A DNA stretch of 64,000 nt, from NCBI RefSeq assembly GCF_044647545.1, contig NZ_CP172818.1, one strand, 5' to 3'. The notes under the pieces are model-generated. The model saw only the letters and a list, made by a program, of their open reading frames with translations. It was not told the origin of the DNA and ran no database searches. Positions within the stretch are counted from its first letter, which is position 1; each line of letters opens with the position of its first letter. The position numbers and the translations under genes were made by a program. This stretch comes from Escherichia coli. GTDB lineage: Bacteria; Pseudomonadota; Gammaproteobacteria; Enterobacterales; Enterobacteriaceae. Positions 2,802 to 49,159 of this stretch are shown here, piece after piece.

Positions 2802-3482
2802 TTAACGCCGCGAACGCACAATCTGATACCGACGAGTAAAGTACTCAAACGGCGCGCTCCAGACATGCACCAGTCGGGTGAACGGGAAGAGCAGAAAGAT
2901 GGTCATTCCAAGCACCAGATGAACGCGGAATATAAAGGCGACACCATCAAGATGCGTAGATGCACCGCCCTGGAAAGTGACAATGCTTTGCGCCCAGCCC
3001 ACCAGCTTCATCATTTCACTGCCGTCCGGATGTTGTGCTGAAAAAGGAATGGTGGTTAACCCAAGAATGCACTGAATTAACAAAATAGCGAGGATCAGGA
3101 TATCCGCACCAGAAGACGTCGCCCTGATACGCGGATTTGTTAAACGACGCACCAGTAGCCCCGCACCGCCAATCAGCGTCAATACCCCGCATATTCCGCC
3201 GAGGATCATCGCCATTAGTTGTTTCGCTGCCACTGGCAAAAACCACGCGTACATCCAGTGCGGCGTTAACATGCCGAACAGGTGCCCGAAGAAAATCCCC
3301 AAAATGCCGATATGGAACAGATTCGACCACAGCACCATACCACGTTTATCCAGCATCTGGCTGGAGGCGGCGCGCCAGGTATACTGCCCGTAATCGTAGC
3401 GCAGCCAGCTTCCAAGGATAAAAACCGTGCCACACAAGTACGGGTAGATATCGTAAAAAAAGACGTTCAGATACTGAATCAT
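2802..3482 (-). CDS. narV: nitrate reductase Z gamma subunit (cytochrome b)
   Basis: 226-aa hydrophobic ORF; overlaps narW by 4 nt; operon order narZYWV. Confidence 0.9.
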
Positions 3483-4174
3483 TTCCCACCTCCCGCACTG
3501 ATGTCGACATACTGCGGCGCGACATCCTGGCTAAAGCGTCGCTGATATTGATTAAGCGGCGAGCTGTCACACGCCGTGGCGTTATCTTCAATAAACTTCA
3601 CCTGTTCTTCTTCCCACACCGCATCCAGCGCCTGGCGGGTGTCGTCACGCTCTTCACTGCGAATCTGTTTTGTGACGCTGTCACTTGACAGAGGGCTTCC
3701 TGCCAGTTGCAACAGGGTGTCAAATAACGCGTACCACGGTGCCTCGCGTTGTTTTAAGCGTCCGCCAAGCAGGGCGAGGATCGGCGCAACGTTGAGCAAG
3801 CCTTCTTTCGCCTGATCGTCCGGCAGTACGCTTAAGTACTCCAGATACAGCGGCAGATAATCGGGCAGTTCTCGACAATCCAACTGCAGACCGACCTTTT
3901 CATACTCCGCCAGCAGGTCCACCATTGCCTGGCCGCGATCGCGGGACTCGGCATGAACATGTTCGAACAGCAGCAGCGATGTGGTACGTCCACGGTCAAA
4001 CACTTCGCACCATTCGGCCTGTTTATCCAGCAGCGGCGCGTTAAGCAGGTTGCGGGTAAAATCCGTAAGCATCGGTGCGTCGCGGCGGATCAACGCCAGC
4101 GCGTCCTCCTTACATTCCCACAACAGCTCGTCCGGATACTCCATCAACAGGCCGATCACTTTGAGGATCTGCAT
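3479..4174 (-). CDS. narW: nitrate reductase Z assembly chaperone
   Basis: 231-aa ORF between narY and narV; 1-nt overlap with narY. Confidence 0.9.
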
Positions 4175-23565: not shown

Positions 23566-23620
23566 AGCATTGCCGGATGACGCGTCAGGCGCGCGATTGC
23601 CTGATGCGTTGTTAGCGTCT

Positions 23621-24547
23621 CTACAGCGCCCGCCAGCACCGGATCTCACGTCCGTCCTCCCTTATTGTTAATGATTGCCGGACTTTACACCCGTGGGTTG
23701 CCAGAGGGCAACGTTCACGGAAAAAACAGCCTTGTGGCAACGTGCGGTTTCCTGGTAGATCCGTTTTACGTAATGCCCATTCTTCCTCCAGCGGTTTATC
23801 AATGGCGGGGAGGGAATCCAGCAATAATCGGGTGTATGGATGTGCCGGAGCTGTCAGCACCTGTTGCGCGTCTCCTAGTTCCACAATCTGTCCGAGATAC
23901 ATCACCGCCACCCGATCGCTCATATGACGTATCACCGAGACATTGTGTGAAATCAGCACATAAGTCAGCCCGCGATTTTCCTGTAGCGTTACCAGTAAAT
24001 TGAGGATCTGCGCCTGCACGGAGATATCCAGCGCCGAGGTTGGTTCATCAAGCACAATCACGTCAGGCTGCGAAGAGAGTGCTCTGGCAATGGCGATACG
24101 TTGCCGCTGCCCGCCTGAGAACGCATGGGGCAAGCGGTCGAGATACTCCGGACGAATACCCACCTGCACAGCCAGCTCCTCTGCCAACGCTCGCCGCTGT
24201 TGTTCACTACTACGCTTAGCAATCCAGAGCGGTTCCGTGATGATGCGCCACACCGGTAAGCGCGGATTAAGCGAAGAGAGCGGGTCCTGAAACACCATCT
24301 GCATAATGCGTTGTGATCCTGAACGGATGTACTGCCCGTGGCTCGGTTGCAGCATACCCATTAAAAGCTGTGCGAGGGTGCTTTTGCCGCAACCTGACTC
24401 ACCGACGATCCCTAAGGTTTCACCACGACGGATCTGTAAATCAATACCATTGATGGCATGAACATGTTCCGTAGTTTTACCAAGCCAGTTTTTTCGGGCC
24501 GGGAAATTGATATGGACGTCGCGTAACGTTAATAACGTGTCAGACAC
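23621..24547 (-). CDS. ddpF: dipeptide ABC transporter ATP-binding protein
   Basis: Trimmed to the GTG at 24547-24545, which has a GCAGGAGG RBS and overlaps the ddpD stop; 308 aa; Walker A GESGCGKS. Confidence 0.85.
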   Translation of the reverse strand: MSDTLLTLRDVHINFPARKNWLGKTTEHVHAINGIDLQIRRGETLGIVGESGCGKSTLAQLLMGMLQPSHGQYIRSGSQRIMQMVFQDPLSSLNPRLPVWRIITEPLWIAKRSSEQQRRALAEELAVQVGIRPEYLDRLPHAFSGGQRQRIAIARALSSQPDVIVLDEPTSALDISVQAQILNLLVTLQENRGLTYVLISHNVSVIRHMSDRVAVMYLGQIVELGDAQQVLTAPAHPYTRLLLDSLPAIDKPLEEEWALRKTDLPGNRTLPQGCFFRERCPLATHGCKVRQSLTIREDGREIRCWRAL

Positions 24548-25526
24548 TAATGACCTCCTGCTGAGGATACCAACAGGCGCAGCGGTGGTTGTTGTCACCA
24601 CACGCTGTTAGCGCCGGGACGTTTTCACACTGCGCACCTGCCGCATAGCAACGATCGCGAAAAGCGCAGCCGTCAGGCAAATGGGTGAGGTTTGGTACCG
24701 TCCCTGGAATGGCGGGTAATGGCTGGCGCGGTATTCCATGTTCCGGTGCGCATTGCAGCAAACCAATGGTATACGGATGCCGGGGATGATGGATAACGTC
24801 TGCCGTCACGCCGCTTTCAATCACGCTTCCGGCATACATCACGTAAACGCTATCGCACAGTTGCGACACCACGGCCATATCATGGCTGATGAACAGTACC
24901 GCAGTTCCACTGGCGCGGGCTTTATGTTTAAGCAGACGCAGTACCTGCAACTGTACCGTGACGTCCAGCGCCGTAGTCGGTTCGTCGGCAATAATCAATT
25001 GCGGCTCGCAGGAGAATGCCAGCGCAATCATTACCCGCTGGCGCATACCACCTGAAAGCTCAAACGGATAGCGCGACATAACTTCCACGGCATCCGGGAT
25101 TTGCATCTCTTCCAGCAGGGCAATCGCTTTAGCTCTGGCTTCCCGACGACTTATTGGTTGATGATGGCGGATCACGTCCATCATCTGAAGACCTATTCGA
25201 CGTGTCGGATTGAGGGCGGTCATCGGTTCCTGAAAGATCATCGCCACTCGTGCGCCGCGCCACTGACGAAGCTGCTTTTCCCGAGCGTTAAGAACATCTT
25301 CTCCCAGCAGTGAAATATGTCCCCGATGTACGCAATAACTGCCCGTCGGTAGCAGACGCATAATCAACATTGCAGTGACTGATTTACCCGAGCCGGATTC
25401 TCCCACCAGACCGACAATTTCACCGCGGTTGATTTTCAATGACACATTGTTGAGCGCGTGAACGTCGCCGTTAAAACCGGGGAAACTCAAATGCAGTTGT
25501 TGAATGTCCAGAACGGGTTGGGTCAT
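24540..25526 (-). CDS. ddpD: dipeptide ABC transporter ATP-binding protein
   Basis: 328-aa ORF; Walker A GESGSGKS. Confidence 0.9.
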   Translation of the reverse strand: MTQPVLDIQQLHLSFPGFNGDVHALNNVSLKINRGEIVGLVGESGSGKSVTAMLIMRLLPTGSYCVHRGHISLLGEDVLNAREKQLRQWRGARVAMIFQEPMTALNPTRRIGLQMMDVIRHHQPISRREARAKAIALLEEMQIPDAVEVMSRYPFELSGGMRQRVMIALAFSCEPQLIIADEPTTALDVTVQLQVLRLLKHKARASGTAVLFISHDMAVVSQLCDSVYVMYAGSVIESGVTADVIHHPRHPYTIGLLQCAPEHGIPRQPLPAIPGTVPNLTHLPDGCAFRDRCYAAGAQCENVPALTACGDNNHRCACWYPQQEVISV

Positions 25527-26419
25527 GACTGCTTTCCTCCTGCTTTCGGGTCAAGCAGATCGCGAATACCATCGCCAAAGAGATTAAACCCGACGGCGGT
25601 AAGCAAAATCGCTGCCCCCGGAAATGCGCAATACCACCATTGATCGAGCACATAGTTGCGACCATTCGCCACCATCGCCCCCCATTCAGCACTCGGTTGT
25701 TGAGCACCAAGGCCAATAAATCCCAACGTGGCGGCCATTAAAATCGCGCTACCGATATCCAGCGATGCCTGCACAATCAGCGGCGGCAGGGAGTTACGTA
25801 AAATATGCCAGTTGATCAGATGCCAACGCGACGCACCAAAGGTTTTCGCCGCCTGAACATAGGTATACTGGCGAACAACTAATGTTTGCCCCCGCGCCAG
25901 GCGCACATAAAAGGGAATTCGCACAATAGCAATCGCCAGCATGGCGTTAAACAAACTCGGCCCGAGAGCGGCTGCCAGTGCCATTGTCAGTACCAGCGAA
26001 GGAATCGACAGCATAATGTCCATGATGCGCATGATAATCGCGTCTGCGCGTCCGCCAAGCACACCGGATAGACACCCGAGTAGCGACCCCATCATACCTG
26101 CAATGGCGACCACCACTAATCCGGCGAGAATTGATTGCTGACTGCCGACCAGTACGCGGCTGAACAGATCGCGTCCCACTTCATCGGTGCCAAACCAGTG
26201 CGCCGCAGAAGGCGGCAAAAGGCGGGCGGTTAAATCAATGGCGTTGGGATCATGCGTCGCCAGCCACGGTGAAAAAATCATCATCAATAGCATTAATACA
26301 ATGATGACTGCGCCGGTCACGGTGAGCGGGCTGCCTTTCAGCATCGATACCAGTTTTGCACCGTTAAATCGCGTTTGTTTTTGTGGGCGTACGGCGGACG
26401 TTTCCTCGCTTAGCATCAT
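25523..26419 (-). CDS. ddpC: dipeptide ABC transporter permease
   Basis: 298-aa membrane ORF; 4-nt overlaps with neighbours. Confidence 0.9.
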   Translation of the reverse strand: MMLSEETSAVRPQKQTRFNGAKLVSMLKGSPLTVTGAVIIVLMLLMMIFSPWLATHDPNAIDLTARLLPPSAAHWFGTDEVGRDLFSRVLVGSQQSILAGLVVVAIAGMMGSLLGCLSGVLGGRADAIIMRIMDIMLSIPSLVLTMALAAALGPSLFNAMLAIAIVRIPFYVRLARGQTLVVRQYTYVQAAKTFGASRWHLINWHILRNSLPPLIVQASLDIGSAILMAATLGFIGLGAQQPSAEWGAMVANGRNYVLDQWWYCAFPGAAILLTAVGFNLFGDGIRDLLDPKAGGKQS

Positions 26420-27438
26420 TCACCACCTCCACGTCCGATACGCGGATCAATCCACAAATAGAGCAAATCCACCACCAGGTTCACCAGCACATAAGCAAAT
26501 GAAACCACGACGGCAAAGCCCATCACTGCCGGGAAGTCGAGCGCCTGTATTGATGTTACTACCCATGCACCCATTCCGGGCCAGGCAAAAACGGTTTCGG
26601 TGAGCACTGCGCCATACAACAAATCGCCCAGCGCCAGTCCCAATACGGTAATCGAGGGGATCAACGCATTGGGTAGCGCATAACATAAAACGATATACCA
26701 GCCGGGCAAGCCGCTGGCCCGGGCGGTACGAATGTAATCTTCACTCAATTGTTCCAGCATAGCTGAGCGGATCTGGCGGGCGACAATCCCCAGGTGAACG
26801 AACGCCAGCGTTAATGCCGGTAAGATAAGATGTTGCAACGCATTGAAGAAGACCTCACCGTTGCCTTCAAGCAGCGCATCGAGCAGATAAAAGCCGGTAA
26901 CGTGCGTTGGTGGATCCAGCCAGTCATCAAGCCTTCCGCCGCCGGGAAGAATTTGCAGATGACCATAAAACAGCACAATGACGCCCAGCCCAAGCCAGAA
27001 CGCAGGTGTGGAGATTCCGGTAATGGCCATTATTCGCACCAGATGATCCAGCCAGCGATTTCGCCAGACTGCAGAGAGTATGCCCAACGGGATGCCAATC
27101 AGGAGTGCCAGCAGCAGCGCGCAAAATGCCAGTTCCAGCGTCGCCGGGAAAAATATACGCAACTCTTCCAGCACCGGACGCCCGGTACGAATGGATGTTC
27201 CCAGGTCACCCTGAAACAGATCGCTGACGTAGCGGTAAAACTGTACGTACAGTGGCTGGTCCAGCCCCAGTTGCTGGCGAATATTTTCCACGATAGCATC
27301 GCTGGCGCGGTCACCCGCCAGTAACCGCGCCGGATCGCCAGGGATCAGGTGCGAGATAATAAACGTAATCACGCAGACGCCCGCCACCACGAGCACCAGC
27401 CCCCAGCAGCGTTGGCGTAAAATACTCCAGAAGGTCAC
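26416..27438 (-). CDS. ddpB: dipeptide ABC transporter permease
   Basis: 340-aa membrane ORF. Confidence 0.9.
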   Translation of the reverse strand: MTFWSILRQRCWGLVLVVAGVCVITFIISHLIPGDPARLLAGDRASDAIVENIRQQLGLDQPLYVQFYRYVSDLFQGDLGTSIRTGRPVLEELRIFFPATLELAFCALLLALLIGIPLGILSAVWRNRWLDHLVRIMAITGISTPAFWLGLGVIVLFYGHLQILPGGGRLDDWLDPPTHVTGFYLLDALLEGNGEVFFNALQHLILPALTLAFVHLGIVARQIRSAMLEQLSEDYIRTARASGLPGWYIVLCYALPNALIPSITVLGLALGDLLYGAVLTETVFAWPGMGAWVVTSIQALDFPAVMGFAVVVSFAYVLVNLVVDLLYLWIDPRIGRGGGE

Positions 27439-27439
27439 G

Positions 27440-28990
27440 TTATTTACTCATAGTATTGATATTGAAGACCTGTTCCAGCATGGGATTGAACACAAAGCCT
27501 TTCACCTCTTTGTTCATCGCCAGTTGATAGTTTTTCTGGAACAGGTACACATAAGCAGCGTCATCAATGACGATTTTCTGTGCCTGCTGGTAGTCCCGGG
27601 TACGCTGCGTCTGGTCGGTGGTCGCTAGCGCATTGCGCAGTAACTTATCGACCTCACTGTTTTCATAGAACGAGCGGTTACCCGGCAGACCTTTTTTGTC
27701 GGACTCAAACCAGTAATTCATAAACATATACGGGTCGGCAAAATCCGGACTCCAGTTGCCAATCGCGATGTCGTAATCACCTTTACCCACTCTGTCGCGC
27801 ATGGTGGCGTTCGCCAGCTTTTCCAGCTTCACATTGATGCCCAGCTTGTTGAGACTGGATTGTGTCGCCAGAGCAATAGGCTCCCAGTTCGGATCATTAT
27901 CAGAATAGAGAAACGTCAGGCTGGTGGGTTTGCTCGTCACTTTATCCCATTCGGCTTTGGCTTTCGTTTCGTCATGGTTGTATTGCATTGCCGTCGCATC
28001 GTATCCCCACATGCCTTCCGGAATCGGGCCGCGCATTTGTTTTCCGTTACCACTCAGAATGCCGTTAACCATACCCTGATAATCGGTAGACCAGGAAATG
28101 GCCCGACGCAGATCCGCCTGATTAAGTGGCGCTTTGCTGTTATTCAGATACAGATAGGTGACGCGCAGTGACGGATACTCTGCCACGTTGACTTTGTTTT
28201 CCTGCTTCAGGGCGTTGAGTTGATCCACCGGCAGCGCATCGGCAATGTCAATGTCGCCACGGGAGAGCTGCAGGCGACGGGAAGCACTTTCACCGATAAT
28301 TTTTACCGATACCCGTTTGAAATTCGGTTTATTGCCGGGGTAATGCGGATTTGGCACCAGAACTAATTGCTGACCTTTTTGCCAGCTTTTCAGCATAAAC
28401 GGTCCGGAGCCAGCGGTATTTTGCGCGAGGAAACCACGGGCATCATCCGCCGCATGCTCCTTTAAGACCGCCGGATTGATAATGGATGCACCGTCATTCG
28501 CCAGCGTGTAGAGGAACGGTGCGAATGGCTGGCTAAGGGTAAACTTCACCGTATGTTCGTCGGGAGCATCAATCTTTAAATCTTTGGGAAATGCTTCTGC
28601 TGGCCCCTGACCGATTTTTAGTAACCGCTCAAAAGAGAGTTTTACTGCTTCGGCAGTGACGGGTGTGCCATCGGCAAATTTAGCGTCGTTCTTCAGGGTG
28701 AACGTCCACTCTTTTTGATCGTCAGACGCTTTCCAGCTACTCGCCAGATCGCCTTCAACGTCGGTTGAGCCTTTATCACCGTCCGTTTTGTACTGAACCA
28801 GTCGCTGATAAGACGGGTAGGTCACTGTCCAGTCGTTATTATCAATTGTCACCGCTGGGTCGAGGGTTTGTGGGTCGGCAGCTTTACCGATCACCAGCAT
28901 ATCTTTCGGTACGGCGGCGTGCGCAACCGGCATTGTTGTGGCAAGGACGATCGCGAGCAATGTAGGACGAAACGATATCGATCTCTTCAT
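27440..28990 (-). CDS. ddpA: periplasmic D-Ala-D-Ala dipeptide-binding protein
   Basis: Trimmed to MKRSISFRPTLLAIVLATTMPVAHA (ATG at 28990-28988), 516 aa with a signal peptide; the track ORF would overlap ddpX. Confidence 0.9.
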   Translation of the reverse strand: MKRSISFRPTLLAIVLATTMPVAHAAVPKDMLVIGKAADPQTLDPAVTIDNNDWTVTYPSYQRLVQYKTDGDKGSTDVEGDLASSWKASDDQKEWTFTLKNDAKFADGTPVTAEAVKLSFERLLKIGQGPAEAFPKDLKIDAPDEHTVKFTLSQPFAPFLYTLANDGASIINPAVLKEHAADDARGFLAQNTAGSGPFMLKSWQKGQQLVLVPNPHYPGNKPNFKRVSVKIIGESASRRLQLSRGDIDIADALPVDQLNALKQENKVNVAEYPSLRVTYLYLNNSKAPLNQADLRRAISWSTDYQGMVNGILSGNGKQMRGPIPEGMWGYDATAMQYNHDETKAKAEWDKVTSKPTSLTFLYSDNDPNWEPIALATQSSLNKLGINVKLEKLANATMRDRVGKGDYDIAIGNWSPDFADPYMFMNYWFESDKKGLPGNRSFYENSEVDKLLRNALATTDQTQRTRDYQQAQKIVIDDAAYVYLFQKNYQLAMNKEVKGFVFNPMLEQVFNINTMSK

Positions 28991-29003
28991 GACAGTTTCC
29001 TGA

Positions 29004-29585
29004 TTAACTGGCGTGCTGTGTGCCAGGGGATATAAAACAGGTGAATTGATCAGCGAGAAGTGGGTAACTCGCTGCCTGGGGTAATTCGAAGTGCCACCAT
29101 TCGCTCGGGATACCGACAAAGCCACCGCCAGTCATAATCGCATTCAGCAACAGCCGATTGCGCTGAGCAGCTGGCGGGACGGAAGGGTGATAAGCATGGG
29201 AACGTTCGTGCATTTCATCGAACTCTGCACCCATATCCAGTATGTTCCCGTGCTCATCACGAAGCGTCAGGTCGATCGCCGTGCCACGGCTGTGATTAGA
29301 ACCGACCGCCACATCAACAACATATTGCGGGTCTGGGCAGGCTTGCCACAACATCGCCTGTGCTTGTTGTGGGCGATACGCATCGTAAATCACCAGTTGT
29401 AAGCCTGACAGCTGGGCGATACTGATACTTTTCGCCAGCGCGGTAATCGCATCCTTGTGTAACAGACAACGCGCTTGCTGATAAATAGCTTTGCCTGTGA
29501 TGTTATCAGCGCAGGCGTATTTCAATTCGATCTCCAGATCAGGGAAGATCACGGCTAAATCAACCAGTTCGGTGGTATCCGACAT
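29004..29585 (-). CDS. ddpX: D-alanyl-D-alanine dipeptidase (VanX homologue)
   Basis: 193-aa ORF; first gene of ddpXABCDF. Confidence 0.92.
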   Translation of the reverse strand: MSDTTELVDLAVIFPDLEIELKYACADNITGKAIYQQARCLLHKDAITALAKSISIAQLSGLQLVIYDAYRPQQAQAMLWQACPDPQYVVDVAVGSNHSRGTAIDLTLRDEHGNILDMGAEFDEMHERSHAYHPSVPPAAQRNRLLLNAIMTGGGFVGIPSEWWHFELPQAASYPLLADQFTCFISPGTQHAS

Positions 29586-29810
29586 AAACGGTTCCTGTAT
29601 AAGACAAAAATTGCTGCGCTTTCCGCTTATGCAGATCTCATGCCACGCCGGGATAAGCGCCAGAATGCTGGCTTAAAGTTATATTTTTTAACTTTTGATC
29701 AACATTTGTGCAGCGTAGTGCAGTTTTGGTGCAAGAGGGGAAGTTAAGGAAGGAATCTCCCGGAATCGTAGCTGAAATCACAGTATTTAAGTGACAGTGT
29801 CACGTTAAAG

Positions 29811-29830
29811 GAAAACCCGCGAGTGCGGGC
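29811..29830 (-). terminator. putative rho-independent terminator after dosP
   Basis: On the minus strand, cccgcactcgcggg hairpin followed by tttt, just 3' of the dosP stop. Confidence 0.5.
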
Positions 29831-29842
29831 GAGAGGAATTTG

Positions 29843-32242
29843 TCAGATTTTCAGCGGTAACACACTGCTCATCCAGCCTGGAATTTCTTCGGCGGGTAGG
29901 GGGCGGGAAAAGAAATATCCCTGAATAACGCGACAGTGGATCTTGCGTAGCATCTCAAATTGCTCTTTGGTTTCGACGCCTTCCGCCACGACGGTTAAAT
30001 TAAGGCTTTGCCCAATGCTGGTAATGGCTTCAAGTAAGGCAAGGATGCGTTTTTCCGTCAGACAACGATCGACAAAACTTTTGTCAATTTTGATTTCCGT
30101 TACCGGAAGACTGACTAAGCGGGATAATCCGGAAAAGCCCGTGCCAAAATCATCTACCGATAAGCCCACGCCCATATCGCGCAGGATCTGAATGCGCTTA
30201 AAGATTTCGGTATCGTGTTCCATCATCATGCTTTCCGTGATTTCTACCGTCAGCTGGTGGCCGTCAATACCCCAGGCTTGCATTGCATCAGACACCTGAT
30301 TAGGCAGCTGATTACTGCGAAAGTGCAGCGCCGACAAGTTCACGGATAACGCCGGGATATGAATATTCTGGCTACGCCATTCTGCTAACTGACGGCAAGC
30401 TTCCGCGATGACCCAGCGTCCAATATTTTCGATTTCACCGATCTCTTCTGCGAGAGGAATAAACCGTGAAGGGGGCACATGACCATGCAGGGGATCGTGC
30501 CAGCGAGCAAGGGCTTCGATGCCGTACAGTTCACCCGTTTCTGCGAAGATTTGTGGCTGGTAAACCAGTTTCAGTTGGTTATTGCTAATTGCTTCTTTCA
30601 GCGCCGCGCCTAAAACCAAACGCTCTTTTACCATTTCGTTCATCGCCGGGCTGAAGAACTGCCAGCCGTTACCGCCATTTTTGCGAATAAAATCCATTGC
30701 ATTGTGAGCAGTGGAGAGCAGGTAATCGCGGTTTTTACCCACGTCGTAGCTGATGCCAATGCTCAAGGTGAGCGGGAATGGTTTATCGTCAATCATTATC
30801 GGCTTGCTGACCACATTCCGTAGCTCATCGGCGATCTGCGTAATGTTACTGACGTCGTTTTCGAGGCTCACGAGGACAAACTGCGTACCTTCGATACGAC
30901 AGAGATATTGATCCGGTTTGAGTTTTTCACGAAAGCGATTGACCACTTCCAGCAATGCCTGATCGGCCCACGCATAGCCAAGGCTATCAATCACATCCTG
31001 AATATGGTCAACACCGATGAGATACACCACTGGAGAGACGGCTTTGTCGACCAGGTCATCGAGGTAATTGTGCAGGTTATTGCGATTTGGCAGACCGGTC
31101 ATCGGATCAAATTGGATGAGTTGTTCAATATGCTGACGGCTTTTTTCCTGTTCCAGCGCCAGCGCGGCCATATGCTGGCTGATATCTGCCACGCGTTCGA
31201 TAAAGGCGCTGGTTTCTGCTCCTGACGAGGTTTTAATTTGCAGGATCCCCGCCGGCGCGCCATCACGCTGACGAATGGTCGCTGACCAGCTTTGCGCATT
31301 TTGAACTTCTGTACCGTGCGAAGATGACGCCCAGTGTATCGGCATCCCGTTGCGCAGCGCGTACAGCGAAACATGCGATTCGTTGAGTACAGATTCGATG
31401 TTACGACAAATGATTTCCCCCATTTCATGAAATGGCGGGCTGCTGCACATGGCGGCGAGAATATTGCCTTCAAGCTGGCGGATTTGCCGTTCTTCGGTGA
31501 TATCCGAGAAGGTCATTACCAGGTTCTGCAGATGCGCGAGCACGTCATAAACCGGGCTGATAGAGGCTTTAATCCAGATTTTTTCACCGGTGCGCGTCAA
31601 TAGCAGAAATTCGTCCTGATCGCGGGCGGTTTTCCATAGCAACTGTTGTAAACGAATGCGGTTATCGGCAGGGAATTCAGGAATGTTCAGGAGTGTATCG
31701 GGCTGCATACCGCTGGCTTCGCTAATGCAGTAACCAAACATTTCGGTAAATGCGCGATTGCACTGCACAATATGGCGTTCCGGATCGAGGACAATCACCG
31801 GTCGGTCGAGATGGTCAACGGCAATAATCAATTGTCGGGTCTGTTCTTTTTGCGCCATTTCTACGCTGGCATCCCGTACCAGCGCCAGGTAATAAATTTT
31901 ACCCTCGGCGCTCACTTTCGATAGCGCAAAACGGGTCCAGATTTTACTGCCGTCTTTTTTCTCCAGCTGCAGCTCCCGACTCATCCCCTCGACGCGCGCT
32001 TTACCGCCTTCACGGTTATGACGAATATATTCAGGATGCGCAGGACGCAAATCCCGCGGAATCAGCATATCAATGTTATTGCCAATGACTTCTTCACGTT
32101 TGTACCCCCAGAGCTTCTCTGCGGCGGGGTTGAAAAACATCACTTCATCATTTTCGTTAATTAACACCGCACCCATCATATTTTGCTCAAGGGCGGGGAA
32201 AAAAATGCCATCGGCGGCATTATCCGCATCGGTTAGCTTCAT
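29843..32242 (-). CDS. dosP: oxygen-sensing c-di-GMP phosphodiesterase (heme-PAS, GGDEF-like, EAL)
   Basis: Trimmed to MKLTDADNAADG (ATG at 32242-32240), 799 aa. Confidence 0.92.
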   Translation of the reverse strand: MKLTDADNAADGIFFPALEQNMMGAVLINENDEVMFFNPAAEKLWGYKREEVIGNNIDMLIPRDLRPAHPEYIRHNREGGKARVEGMSRELQLEKKDGSKIWTRFALSKVSAEGKIYYLALVRDASVEMAQKEQTRQLIIAVDHLDRPVIVLDPERHIVQCNRAFTEMFGYCISEASGMQPDTLLNIPEFPADNRIRLQQLLWKTARDQDEFLLLTRTGEKIWIKASISPVYDVLAHLQNLVMTFSDITEERQIRQLEGNILAAMCSSPPFHEMGEIICRNIESVLNESHVSLYALRNGMPIHWASSSHGTEVQNAQSWSATIRQRDGAPAGILQIKTSSGAETSAFIERVADISQHMAALALEQEKSRQHIEQLIQFDPMTGLPNRNNLHNYLDDLVDKAVSPVVYLIGVDHIQDVIDSLGYAWADQALLEVVNRFREKLKPDQYLCRIEGTQFVLVSLENDVSNITQIADELRNVVSKPIMIDDKPFPLTLSIGISYDVGKNRDYLLSTAHNAMDFIRKNGGNGWQFFSPAMNEMVKERLVLGAALKEAISNNQLKLVYQPQIFAETGELYGIEALARWHDPLHGHVPPSRFIPLAEEIGEIENIGRWVIAEACRQLAEWRSQNIHIPALSVNLSALHFRSNQLPNQVSDAMQAWGIDGHQLTVEITESMMMEHDTEIFKRIQILRDMGVGLSVDDFGTGFSGLSRLVSLPVTEIKIDKSFVDRCLTEKRILALLEAITSIGQSLNLTVVAEGVETKEQFEMLRKIHCRVIQGYFFSRPLPAEEIPGWMSSVLPLKI

Positions 32243-32266: not shown

Positions 32267-33649
32267 CTAAAGACTGGCTTTCCAGAGTTCAACACGGTTT
32301 CTACCTCGTCTTTTGGCGATATACAGAGCTTCATCGGCTATTTGAATGAGGCGCTCATAGTCAGGATGACCATTAAACATGGCGGCACCGATGGAAAGTG
32401 AGAGGGCAATATCCTCGCCGTTTGCGGCTTTCAGTTTGGTTTTCTCCACCCGACTGCGAATACGTTCTGCGGTACGTAACGTTTCGTTTTCCGAAGCTTC
32501 AGTCAAAACAATGATAAATTCATCGCCACCGTAGCGGAAAACATAATCACTACTGCGGACGTTGTCATAAAAGGCCTGAGAGACTTTACGCAGAATTTCA
32601 TCGCCAGTGTTATGGCCCCACGTATCGTTGATCTCTTTGAATTTATCAACGTCAATAATCAGCACTGACAGCGGTGTACCGGTCCGGTTGGCATGGGCAA
32701 TTTCGCGTTTGAAGATCGTCGGCAGGAAACGACGGTTAAGTAATTTCGTCAGGACATCCATACCGACTTCGTGGCGCGATACTTCTTCAAACAATTCACG
32801 CAGCAAGGTAATAATTTGCGATACGGTATTTCTTATCTGTAATAAAAATTTCACCCGTAAACTTCTGTTATTCAAATTCCTGGTGTTACGCATGGTTTGA
32901 TTGAAAATACCGTCGAAATCCTGAATCAGACGGGAGATATGGCCCACTTCGGCAATGCCGCTAAAATAATGTCGACCTTTATGGTTAAACCACAGGCCAA
33001 AATCAGCCTGGCTTAAAGGCAAACTACTGCCTAAATCAGAATCCAGCAGGACTTTATAGATAATATCTATTTCCCATGAAAGTATTGAGGCTATTTGCCG
33101 TTCTTTTTCTTCTTCGGCATTTTCCAGTAACGAGAAGATACGATAGTTTTCATCTTCCTTTGAGGCACTACTGTCACTAAAGGTAAACGCGCGGGTCATC
33201 ACTTCCATAGCGATATCAATACTGTTAATAGAGAAATGGTAGACCTGAAGTTTTTCTGCGGCGGAATAATCCGAAGAGAAGATGACCGGATAGAGGATTT
33301 TTTTCAGCACCCGAAACCCCATCTCGACAATTTCTACCGGAATTCCTATGCGGGCATGCACTTCCGCGACGGTATGCTGGATTTGTATTAGCCTTTCGAC
33401 ATCGTCAACCTGGGCAGAAAGCACGTTAATAATCCAGCGTTCCATCGCACTTTTCAACTGCCGCTCAACTTGTTCATTACTCAAGAATTCTTCGGCATGT
33501 GGGTCGATACGGACAATTCGATAAAACTCAATACTCAGATAATGAGCATGCGCAACGGCAATTTCCGCGGCTTTAGCACGAATGAGCGGATCTGCTTGTT
33601 CGACAAGCCCGGTCCACTCATCTTTCATTCTTTTAAAATACATCTCCAT
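32267..33649 (-). CDS. dosC: oxygen-sensing diguanylate cyclase (globin-coupled sensor, GGDEF)
   Basis: 460-aa ORF with a RYGGDEF motif; 24 nt upstream of dosP. Confidence 0.92.
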   Translation of the reverse strand: MEMYFKRMKDEWTGLVEQADPLIRAKAAEIAVAHAHYLSIEFYRIVRIDPHAEEFLSNEQVERQLKSAMERWIINVLSAQVDDVERLIQIQHTVAEVHARIGIPVEIVEMGFRVLKKILYPVIFSSDYSAAEKLQVYHFSINSIDIAMEVMTRAFTFSDSSASKEDENYRIFSLLENAEEEKERQIASILSWEIDIIYKVLLDSDLGSSLPLSQADFGLWFNHKGRHYFSGIAEVGHISRLIQDFDGIFNQTMRNTRNLNNRSLRVKFLLQIRNTVSQIITLLRELFEEVSRHEVGMDVLTKLLNRRFLPTIFKREIAHANRTGTPLSVLIIDVDKFKEINDTWGHNTGDEILRKVSQAFYDNVRSSDYVFRYGGDEFIIVLTEASENETLRTAERIRSRVEKTKLKAANGEDIALSLSIGAAMFNGHPDYERLIQIADEALYIAKRRGRNRVELWKASL

Positions 33650-48975: not shown

Positions 48976-49159
48976 GAAAGAGGAGAGGCTTTATGTTCTG
49001 GAACCCTGAAGTAATAACGACGACCGGAAAATCGCTTCGCATCACTCAAATCCAATTTAACATAATATACATTATGCGCACCAACATAAACCAAGGAAGA
49101 ATCCAGTCGTTGGCGGTCATGATTGTCCTGCTCATTAACAACGACCAAAACCCCATATC

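Follow-up and report, generated by a model that had tools for sequence, protein, structure and literature searches.

A 13-bp palindrome, GTGACAGTGTCAC, lying between dosP and ddpX in Escherichia coli is almost certainly a matS site of the replication-terminus (Ter) macrodomain. It occurs exactly at positions 29791 to 29803 of the stretch of DNA that was analyzed (here called the window; 64,000 nucleotides of E. coli contig NZ_CP172818.1), and comparison with the 13-bp matS consensus, GTGACRNYGTCAC, which is the binding site of MatP (PMC6907758, Table 2; PMC3116907), revealed 0 mismatches (GTGAC-A-G-T-GTCAC). Five lines of evidence for this identity were computed here, namely, the fit to the consensus, the position within Ter, the recurrence of the motif nearby, the conservation of the site, and its independence from ddpX; the in vitro binding of MatP to an identical 13-mer and the functions of MatP and matS are taken from published papers. 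The element is of an already known kind, as descriptions of matS and MatP date back to 2008 and K-12 also carries this copy. The matS sites of E. coli were reportedly the subject of Mercier et al. 2008 (Cell 135:475).

Using GTGACRNYGTCAC as a query, three exact matches were identified in the window (at 3672, 29791, and 57746), compared with 0.00 in 100 dinucleotide-preserving shuffles, and a search of the window allowing one mismatch returned no further match besides these three exact sites. The matches are spaced 26 to 28 kb apart. Those other than the dosP-ddpX copy are located within narW and lsrR, the open reading frames of which were identified by profile search; thus, matS sites are not restricted to intergenic DNA. 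A perfect copy of the dif sequence, GGTGCGCATAATGTATATTATGTTAAAT, is present as well, and by this site the window is the center of the Ter region. The features discussed here are listed in Table 1.

Table 1. Positions in the window of the matS sites, dif, and the genes and elements adjoining the dosP-ddpX copy
Feature	Position	Strand	Basis or remark
matS site GTGACAGTGTCAC	29791..29803	.	dosP-ddpX intergenic; exact GTGACRNYGTCAC match
matS consensus site GTGACGCTGTCAC inside narW	3672..3684	.	exact consensus match; ORF 3479-4174 = NarW
matS consensus site GTGACAACGTCAC inside lsrR	57746..57758	.	exact consensus match; ORF 57562-58515 = LsrR
dif, XerCD chromosome-dimer resolution site	49055..49082	-	exact 28/28 match to GGTGCGCATAATGTATATTATGTTAAAT; 0 expected by chance
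dosP intrinsic terminator hairpin, separate from matS	29815..29830	-	terminator scan: GCCCGCACTCGCGGGT then T-rich TTTCCTTTAA; RNA fold shows hairpin
ddpX sigma-54 promoter (TGGCAT-N5-CTGCA), separate from matS, ~160 bp away	29630..29646	-	read from sequence
dosC	32267-33649	-	
dosP end	29843	-	
ddpX	29585-29004	-	start codon at 29585

In K-12 MG1655 (NC_000913.3), the identical 13-mer is found at 1,563,282 to 1,563,294, flanked by ddpX (1,562,495 to 1,563,076) and dosP (1,563,334 to 1,565,733). The other two sites in the window also have K-12 counterparts. The lsrR copy is identical to a site at 1,600,472, while the narW copy corresponds to GTGACACTGTCAC at 1,536,807 and differs from the GTGACGCTGTCAC of the window solely at the degenerate R position. 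The distance between the dosP-ddpX copy and dif is 19.3 kb in the window strain versus 27.5 kb in K-12, indicating approximately 8 kb of indels between the two strains in that interval. Over tens of kilobases, the window also lacks collinearity with strain FDAARGOS_497.

As a stand-in for the published site table, the K-12 sequence was scanned with GTGACRNYGTCAC from 1,100,001 to 1,950,000 (850 kb), which yielded 20 exact matches against 0.2 expected from base composition. These span 1,136,538 to 1,916,864 (780 kb), a range within which dif lies (found once in the scanned interval, at 1,590,750 to 1,590,777), and the copy at 1,563,282 is the 12th of them. The count agrees with the published picture of 23 matS sites in a Ter of ~800 kb; that matS is absent outside Ter is taken from the literature (PMC3116907). 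The matS density has been given as ~3 per 100 kb, doubled near dif (Seba et al. 2024, PMC10945525). The gap between the 20 sites counted and the 23 published is presumably made up of near-consensus sites. Fifteen one-mismatch sequences were seen in the same K-12 interval, where rough arithmetic gives ~6 expected (examples are GTTACAGTGTCAC at 1,665,175 and ATGACACTGTCAC at 1,342,347), and some of these may be extra sites behind the published counts of 23 or 28. An oligonucleotide named for matS19 maps exactly to a different K-12 copy (1,745,148, the 17th in our count), and judged from its position the copy studied here is probably one of matS12 to matS14 in the published numbering. We infer that it belongs to the published matS list.

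Positions 29768 to 29900 of the window were aligned with K-12, Escherichia sp. E1V33, and eight further E. coli strains selected for their low identity (11 sequences in total); a twelfth sequence, from L006, a divergent E. coli lineage, was compared with the window in an alignment of its own. Variation was present in 21 of the 75 noncoding columns of the 11-sequence alignment, with none falling in 29790 to 29806; the hypergeometric P value for a given clean block of 13 columns is 0.009. In L006 the 13-mer is unchanged and its flanks differ. Overall, the 13-mer is invariant in all 12 Escherichia sequences, including a cryptic-clade species with a 95% identical DosP protein. Metagenome contigs picked by their flanks only carried the same core in 23 of 25 cases, although this is a weak test, as the contigs are near-identical to each other. 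One of the remaining contigs has GTGACAGCGTCAC, in which C replaces T at the degenerate Y of the consensus and the fit is kept, and the other has GTGACAGTGTCGC, in which the consensus is broken; the latter contig contains another singleton difference, and it is possible that its core reflects a sequencing error. Sequence variation respects the consensus in three ways: the 13-mer is invariant among the Escherichia sequences, the metagenome substitution at Y replaces T with C, and the narW copy changes at R only.

Outside this group, a search for DosP orthologs with one genome per species returned only seven loci, four of which have nonhomologous DNA downstream of dosP, making cross-genus footprinting impossible. 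Unrelated DNA follows dosP, and this matS copy is absent, in E. whittamii, E. albertii, Citrobacter amalonaticus, and one divergent "E. coli" lineage; in C. amalonaticus a consensus site is present 2 kb further on. Single matS copies are thus subject to turnover from one species to another, and the system as a whole endures. The dosCP operon itself is decaying in some lineages that have kept the adjoining matS site: strain MS20657 retains only part of dosC (L002, 6504 to 6668), and the annotation of strain EC31 gives dosP as frameshifted (L018, 334 to 410). In a Terrisporobacter petrolearius assembly, a low-coverage contig of 519 bp (NZ_JAHZMO010000128.1, locus L010) encodes a fragment with 96% identity to E. 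coli DosP and is almost certainly E. coli contamination.

A 311-bp query spanning the intergenic region found matches in 5,391 of 5,426 E. coli genomes, and in approximately 1,176 of the 5,391 (roughly 22%) the match extends only from about window position 29764 to 29767 towards dosP. Six such partial-match genomes were opened, and in all six ddpXABCDF is absent, osmC is convergent with dosP, and the palindrome is intact. As the site is intact without the ddp operon, it belongs to the dosP side of the polymorphism and is independent of ddpX.

The whole ddp operon (ddpFDCBAX, window ~23607 to 29767) is a presence/absence polymorphism in E. coli. The ddp-less allele (L002, 3895 to 4004; also L003 and L013 to L016) is no clean deletion, since it contains ~70 bp of unrelated sequence, cagcacaatcacatcaggctgagaagggattgttgtgacatggctatgcgttgtcgttgtccaactaaa, between a REP-like element after osmC and the equivalent of window position 29768. 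In the window, this REP-like palindromic element, gccggatgacgcgtcaggcgcgcgattgcctgatgcg, is at 23568 to 23612 and immediately follows the osmC stop codon. Genomes with and without ddp both carry it, and it marks the left boundary of the polymorphism.

These observations bear on the reading of the palindrome as an operator for a dimeric transcription factor of the NtrC/sigma-54-dependent ddpXABCDF operon. The site is intergenic, its center is ~160 bp upstream of the sigma-54 element, and it is a conserved perfect inverted repeat, all of which would suit an operator. However, the sequence is also kept without change in genomes that lack the ddp operon, where it has no downstream gene, and the homology break places it on the dosP side. 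In addition, matS explains the sequence fully, NtrC and RpoN already account for the control of ddpX, and the expression of Ter genes is reportedly unaffected by MatP. A role as a ddpX operator is therefore very improbable. An earlier note on this DNA, made from the sequence alone, had suggested a dimeric transcription-factor site, and part of this stands, in that the site is one for a dimeric DNA-binding protein (a MatP dimer binds matS); the part that would make it a ddpX operator does not. Conservation across ddpX upstream regions had been proposed there as a check, and the site is indeed conserved, but its conservation follows the dosP side and the terminus location and not ddpX.

The elements that do concern ddpX are separate from the palindrome. 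Its sigma-54 element matches 16 of the 17 bases of ATGGCATGAGATCTGCA, a motif from sigma-54 chromatin immunoprecipitation sequencing (ChIP-seq) that was assigned to ddpX, 34 bp upstream of the gene (PMC4591121), and ddpX is upregulated ~100-fold under nitrogen limitation in an NtrC- and RpoN-dependent manner (PMC8743547). Just 5' of TGGCA, the window strain has G where K-12 has A. Three TGCAC repeats, TGCACCAAAACTGCACTACGCTGCACAAA, were noted on the minus strand at 29706 to 29735, followed by an A/T-rich stretch and then the sigma-54 element; from their sequence, these repeats, ~60 bp from matS, look like a putative NtrC enhancer. A scan of 29500 to 29900 for sigma-70 promoters gave no match.

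A second alternative is that the palindrome is a functionless product of chance. The coordinates and the exactness of the inverted repeat given in the earlier note proved correct when the sequence was reread, and its placement between the dosP terminator and the ddpX promoter, about 200 nt upstream of ddpX, was accurate, as the center is 212 nt upstream of the ddpX start codon and GTGACAGTGTCAC starts 12 nt from the terminator stem. The rarity that the note had implied for such a palindrome was not borne out. Perfect 6-1-6 palindromes number 21 in the window, where 17.6 ± 4.6 are expected from Markov shuffles, and perfect palindromes with other spacers (0 to 8) number 14 to 29 per spacer length. 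As a generic 6-1-6 palindrome, the site belongs to a class with no excess over chance, and this near-expected count is the point in favor of a chance origin; its significance comes from its specific sequence. Against chance stand the three exact matS matches in the window and the 20 in the K-12 Ter, with 0.00 and 0.2 expected, respectively, the invariant block amid variable flanks (P = 0.009), and the metagenome variant at a degenerate consensus position. The probability that the palindrome is functionless is accordingly regarded as negligible. Its perfect symmetry ends at 6+1+6. Allowing one extra base on one side, it could be extended to TTTAA-GTGACAGTGTCAC-gTTAAA (29786 to 29809); this TTTAA/TTAAA extension is not kept in Escherichia sp. 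E1V33 and is probably fortuitous.

The possibility that the site acts as RNA, with the dosCP transcript carrying an additional 3'-terminal hairpin that aids termination or blocks 3' exonucleases, is likewise next to nil: a minus-strand RNA hairpin, UUUAAcGUGAC-ACU-GUCACUUAAA, is predicted directly after the terminator (z = -2.6 for the 86-nt fold), but every palindrome folds on paper, the stem is short (five pairs poor in G/C and a bulged A/U extension), its position downstream of the terminator U-tract means that most transcripts should end earlier, no Rfam family matched, and the A/U extension is lost in Escherichia sp. E1V33, which keeps the 13-mer. The Rfam scan covered 29300 to 30100 at E <= 10 and gave only three chance matches, all to eukaryotic RNAs.

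Several known protein-binding sequences were also compared with the palindrome. The consensus of the cAMP receptor protein (CRP) is TGTGA-N6-TCACA, and the site resembles it in its inverted GTGA and TCAC half-site cores and in being intergenic; a CRP site was rejected because the spacing is 5 instead of 6 and the flanking T and A are absent (aGTGA...TCACg). None of the FNR, LexA, Pho box, NtrC, Nac, GntR-type, and NorR motifs fit on inspection of the sequence. The SlmA-binding sequence (SBS; 12-bp GTGAGTACTCAC) shares with GTGACAGTGTCAC a palindromic structure with outer GTGA...TCAC and is also a signal of chromosome position and not a gene regulator (PMC3116907). However, the SBS is even centered (12 bp, GTGA-N4-TCAC) whereas GTGACAGTGTCAC has 13 bp (GTGA-N5-TCAC), and the inner bases differ. 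Furthermore, Ter is reported to contain no SlmA sites (PMC3116907), while GTGACAGTGTCAC is located 19 kb from dif. The SBS was thus ruled out by length, by center and spacing, and by the location in Ter.

The assignment to matS is consistent with published biochemistry. The substrate matS237, used in gel shifts with MatP, carries the identical 13-mer ("matS site: GTGACAGTGTCAC") within flanks other than those native here (Crozat et al. 2020, PMC7394560), and the "matS19" oligonucleotide, AAAGTGACACTGTCACCTT, has the GTGACAGTGTCAC core on the other strand, again with flanks that are not those here (Monterroso et al. 2019, PMC6538776). Structures of MatP, of MatP with DNA, or of MukBEF-MatP-matS are present in the PDB under entries 4D8J, 3VEA/3VEB, and 7NYW, the last being a cryo-electron microscopy structure of MukBEF-MatP-matS. 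The matP gene, located outside the window, was identified in 5,425 of 5,426 complete E. coli genomes, a count made at the species level. Compared with the E. coli matS/MatP system, the site has an exact GTGACRNYGTCAC fit, a location in Ter near dif, and repeats every few tens of kilobases, and it shares with that system a cognate matP in the species and an identical 13-mer that has been used experimentally. As no difference was detected, the site is considered the same thing and not a variant. We infer that the copy at 29791 to 29803 is occupied by MatP in vivo. In a single ChIP-seq study (PMC4738335), MatP enrichment was missing from at least one site of the consensus type, matS5, so a consensus match is no guarantee of occupancy and a small doubt stays.

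According to published work on the family, both matS half-sites are bound by a MatP dimer. MatP bound at matS sites scattered over the roughly 0.8- to 1-Mb Ter macrodomain compacts Ter, lowers its mobility, and delays its segregation (PMC3116907), and it ties Ter to the division septum and divisome via ZapB (PMC10945525). MatP also displaces or unloads the MukBEF condensin from Ter, an effect that rises as matS sites become more numerous and more densely spaced (PMC4738335; PMC10945525). The copy at 29791 to 29803 would act through its chromosomal position, ~19 kb from dif, and not through the adjoining genes. Its placement between the dosP terminator and the ddpX promoter would then be incidental, the other two sites in the window being intragenic.

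Given how close the site lies to the dosP terminator, the TGCAC repeats, and the sigma-54 element, a local effect in addition to this role can be imagined, with bound MatP acting as a roadblock to dosCP read-through into ddpX or altering enhancer-promoter looping, and if this were true, ddp expression would be coupled to the cell-cycle state of the terminus. Such an effect is considered very unlikely, and none of the present observations favors it; the review according to which MatP does not affect the expression of Ter genes draws on a global survey that was probably not conducted under nitrogen limitation, the condition in which ddpX is induced.

The matS feature is absent from the annotation of the RefSeq records of K-12 and the other genomes examined, and as long as matS is left unmarked there, readers working from sequence only will keep flagging such sites as orphan operators. 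The protein for which this is a predicted site organizes the chromosome and is not a regulator of ddpX. Recognition of the matS motif together with dif marks the window as the chromosome terminus, and the matS identity warns against deducing regulation of ddpX from a palindrome that is conserved for another reason.
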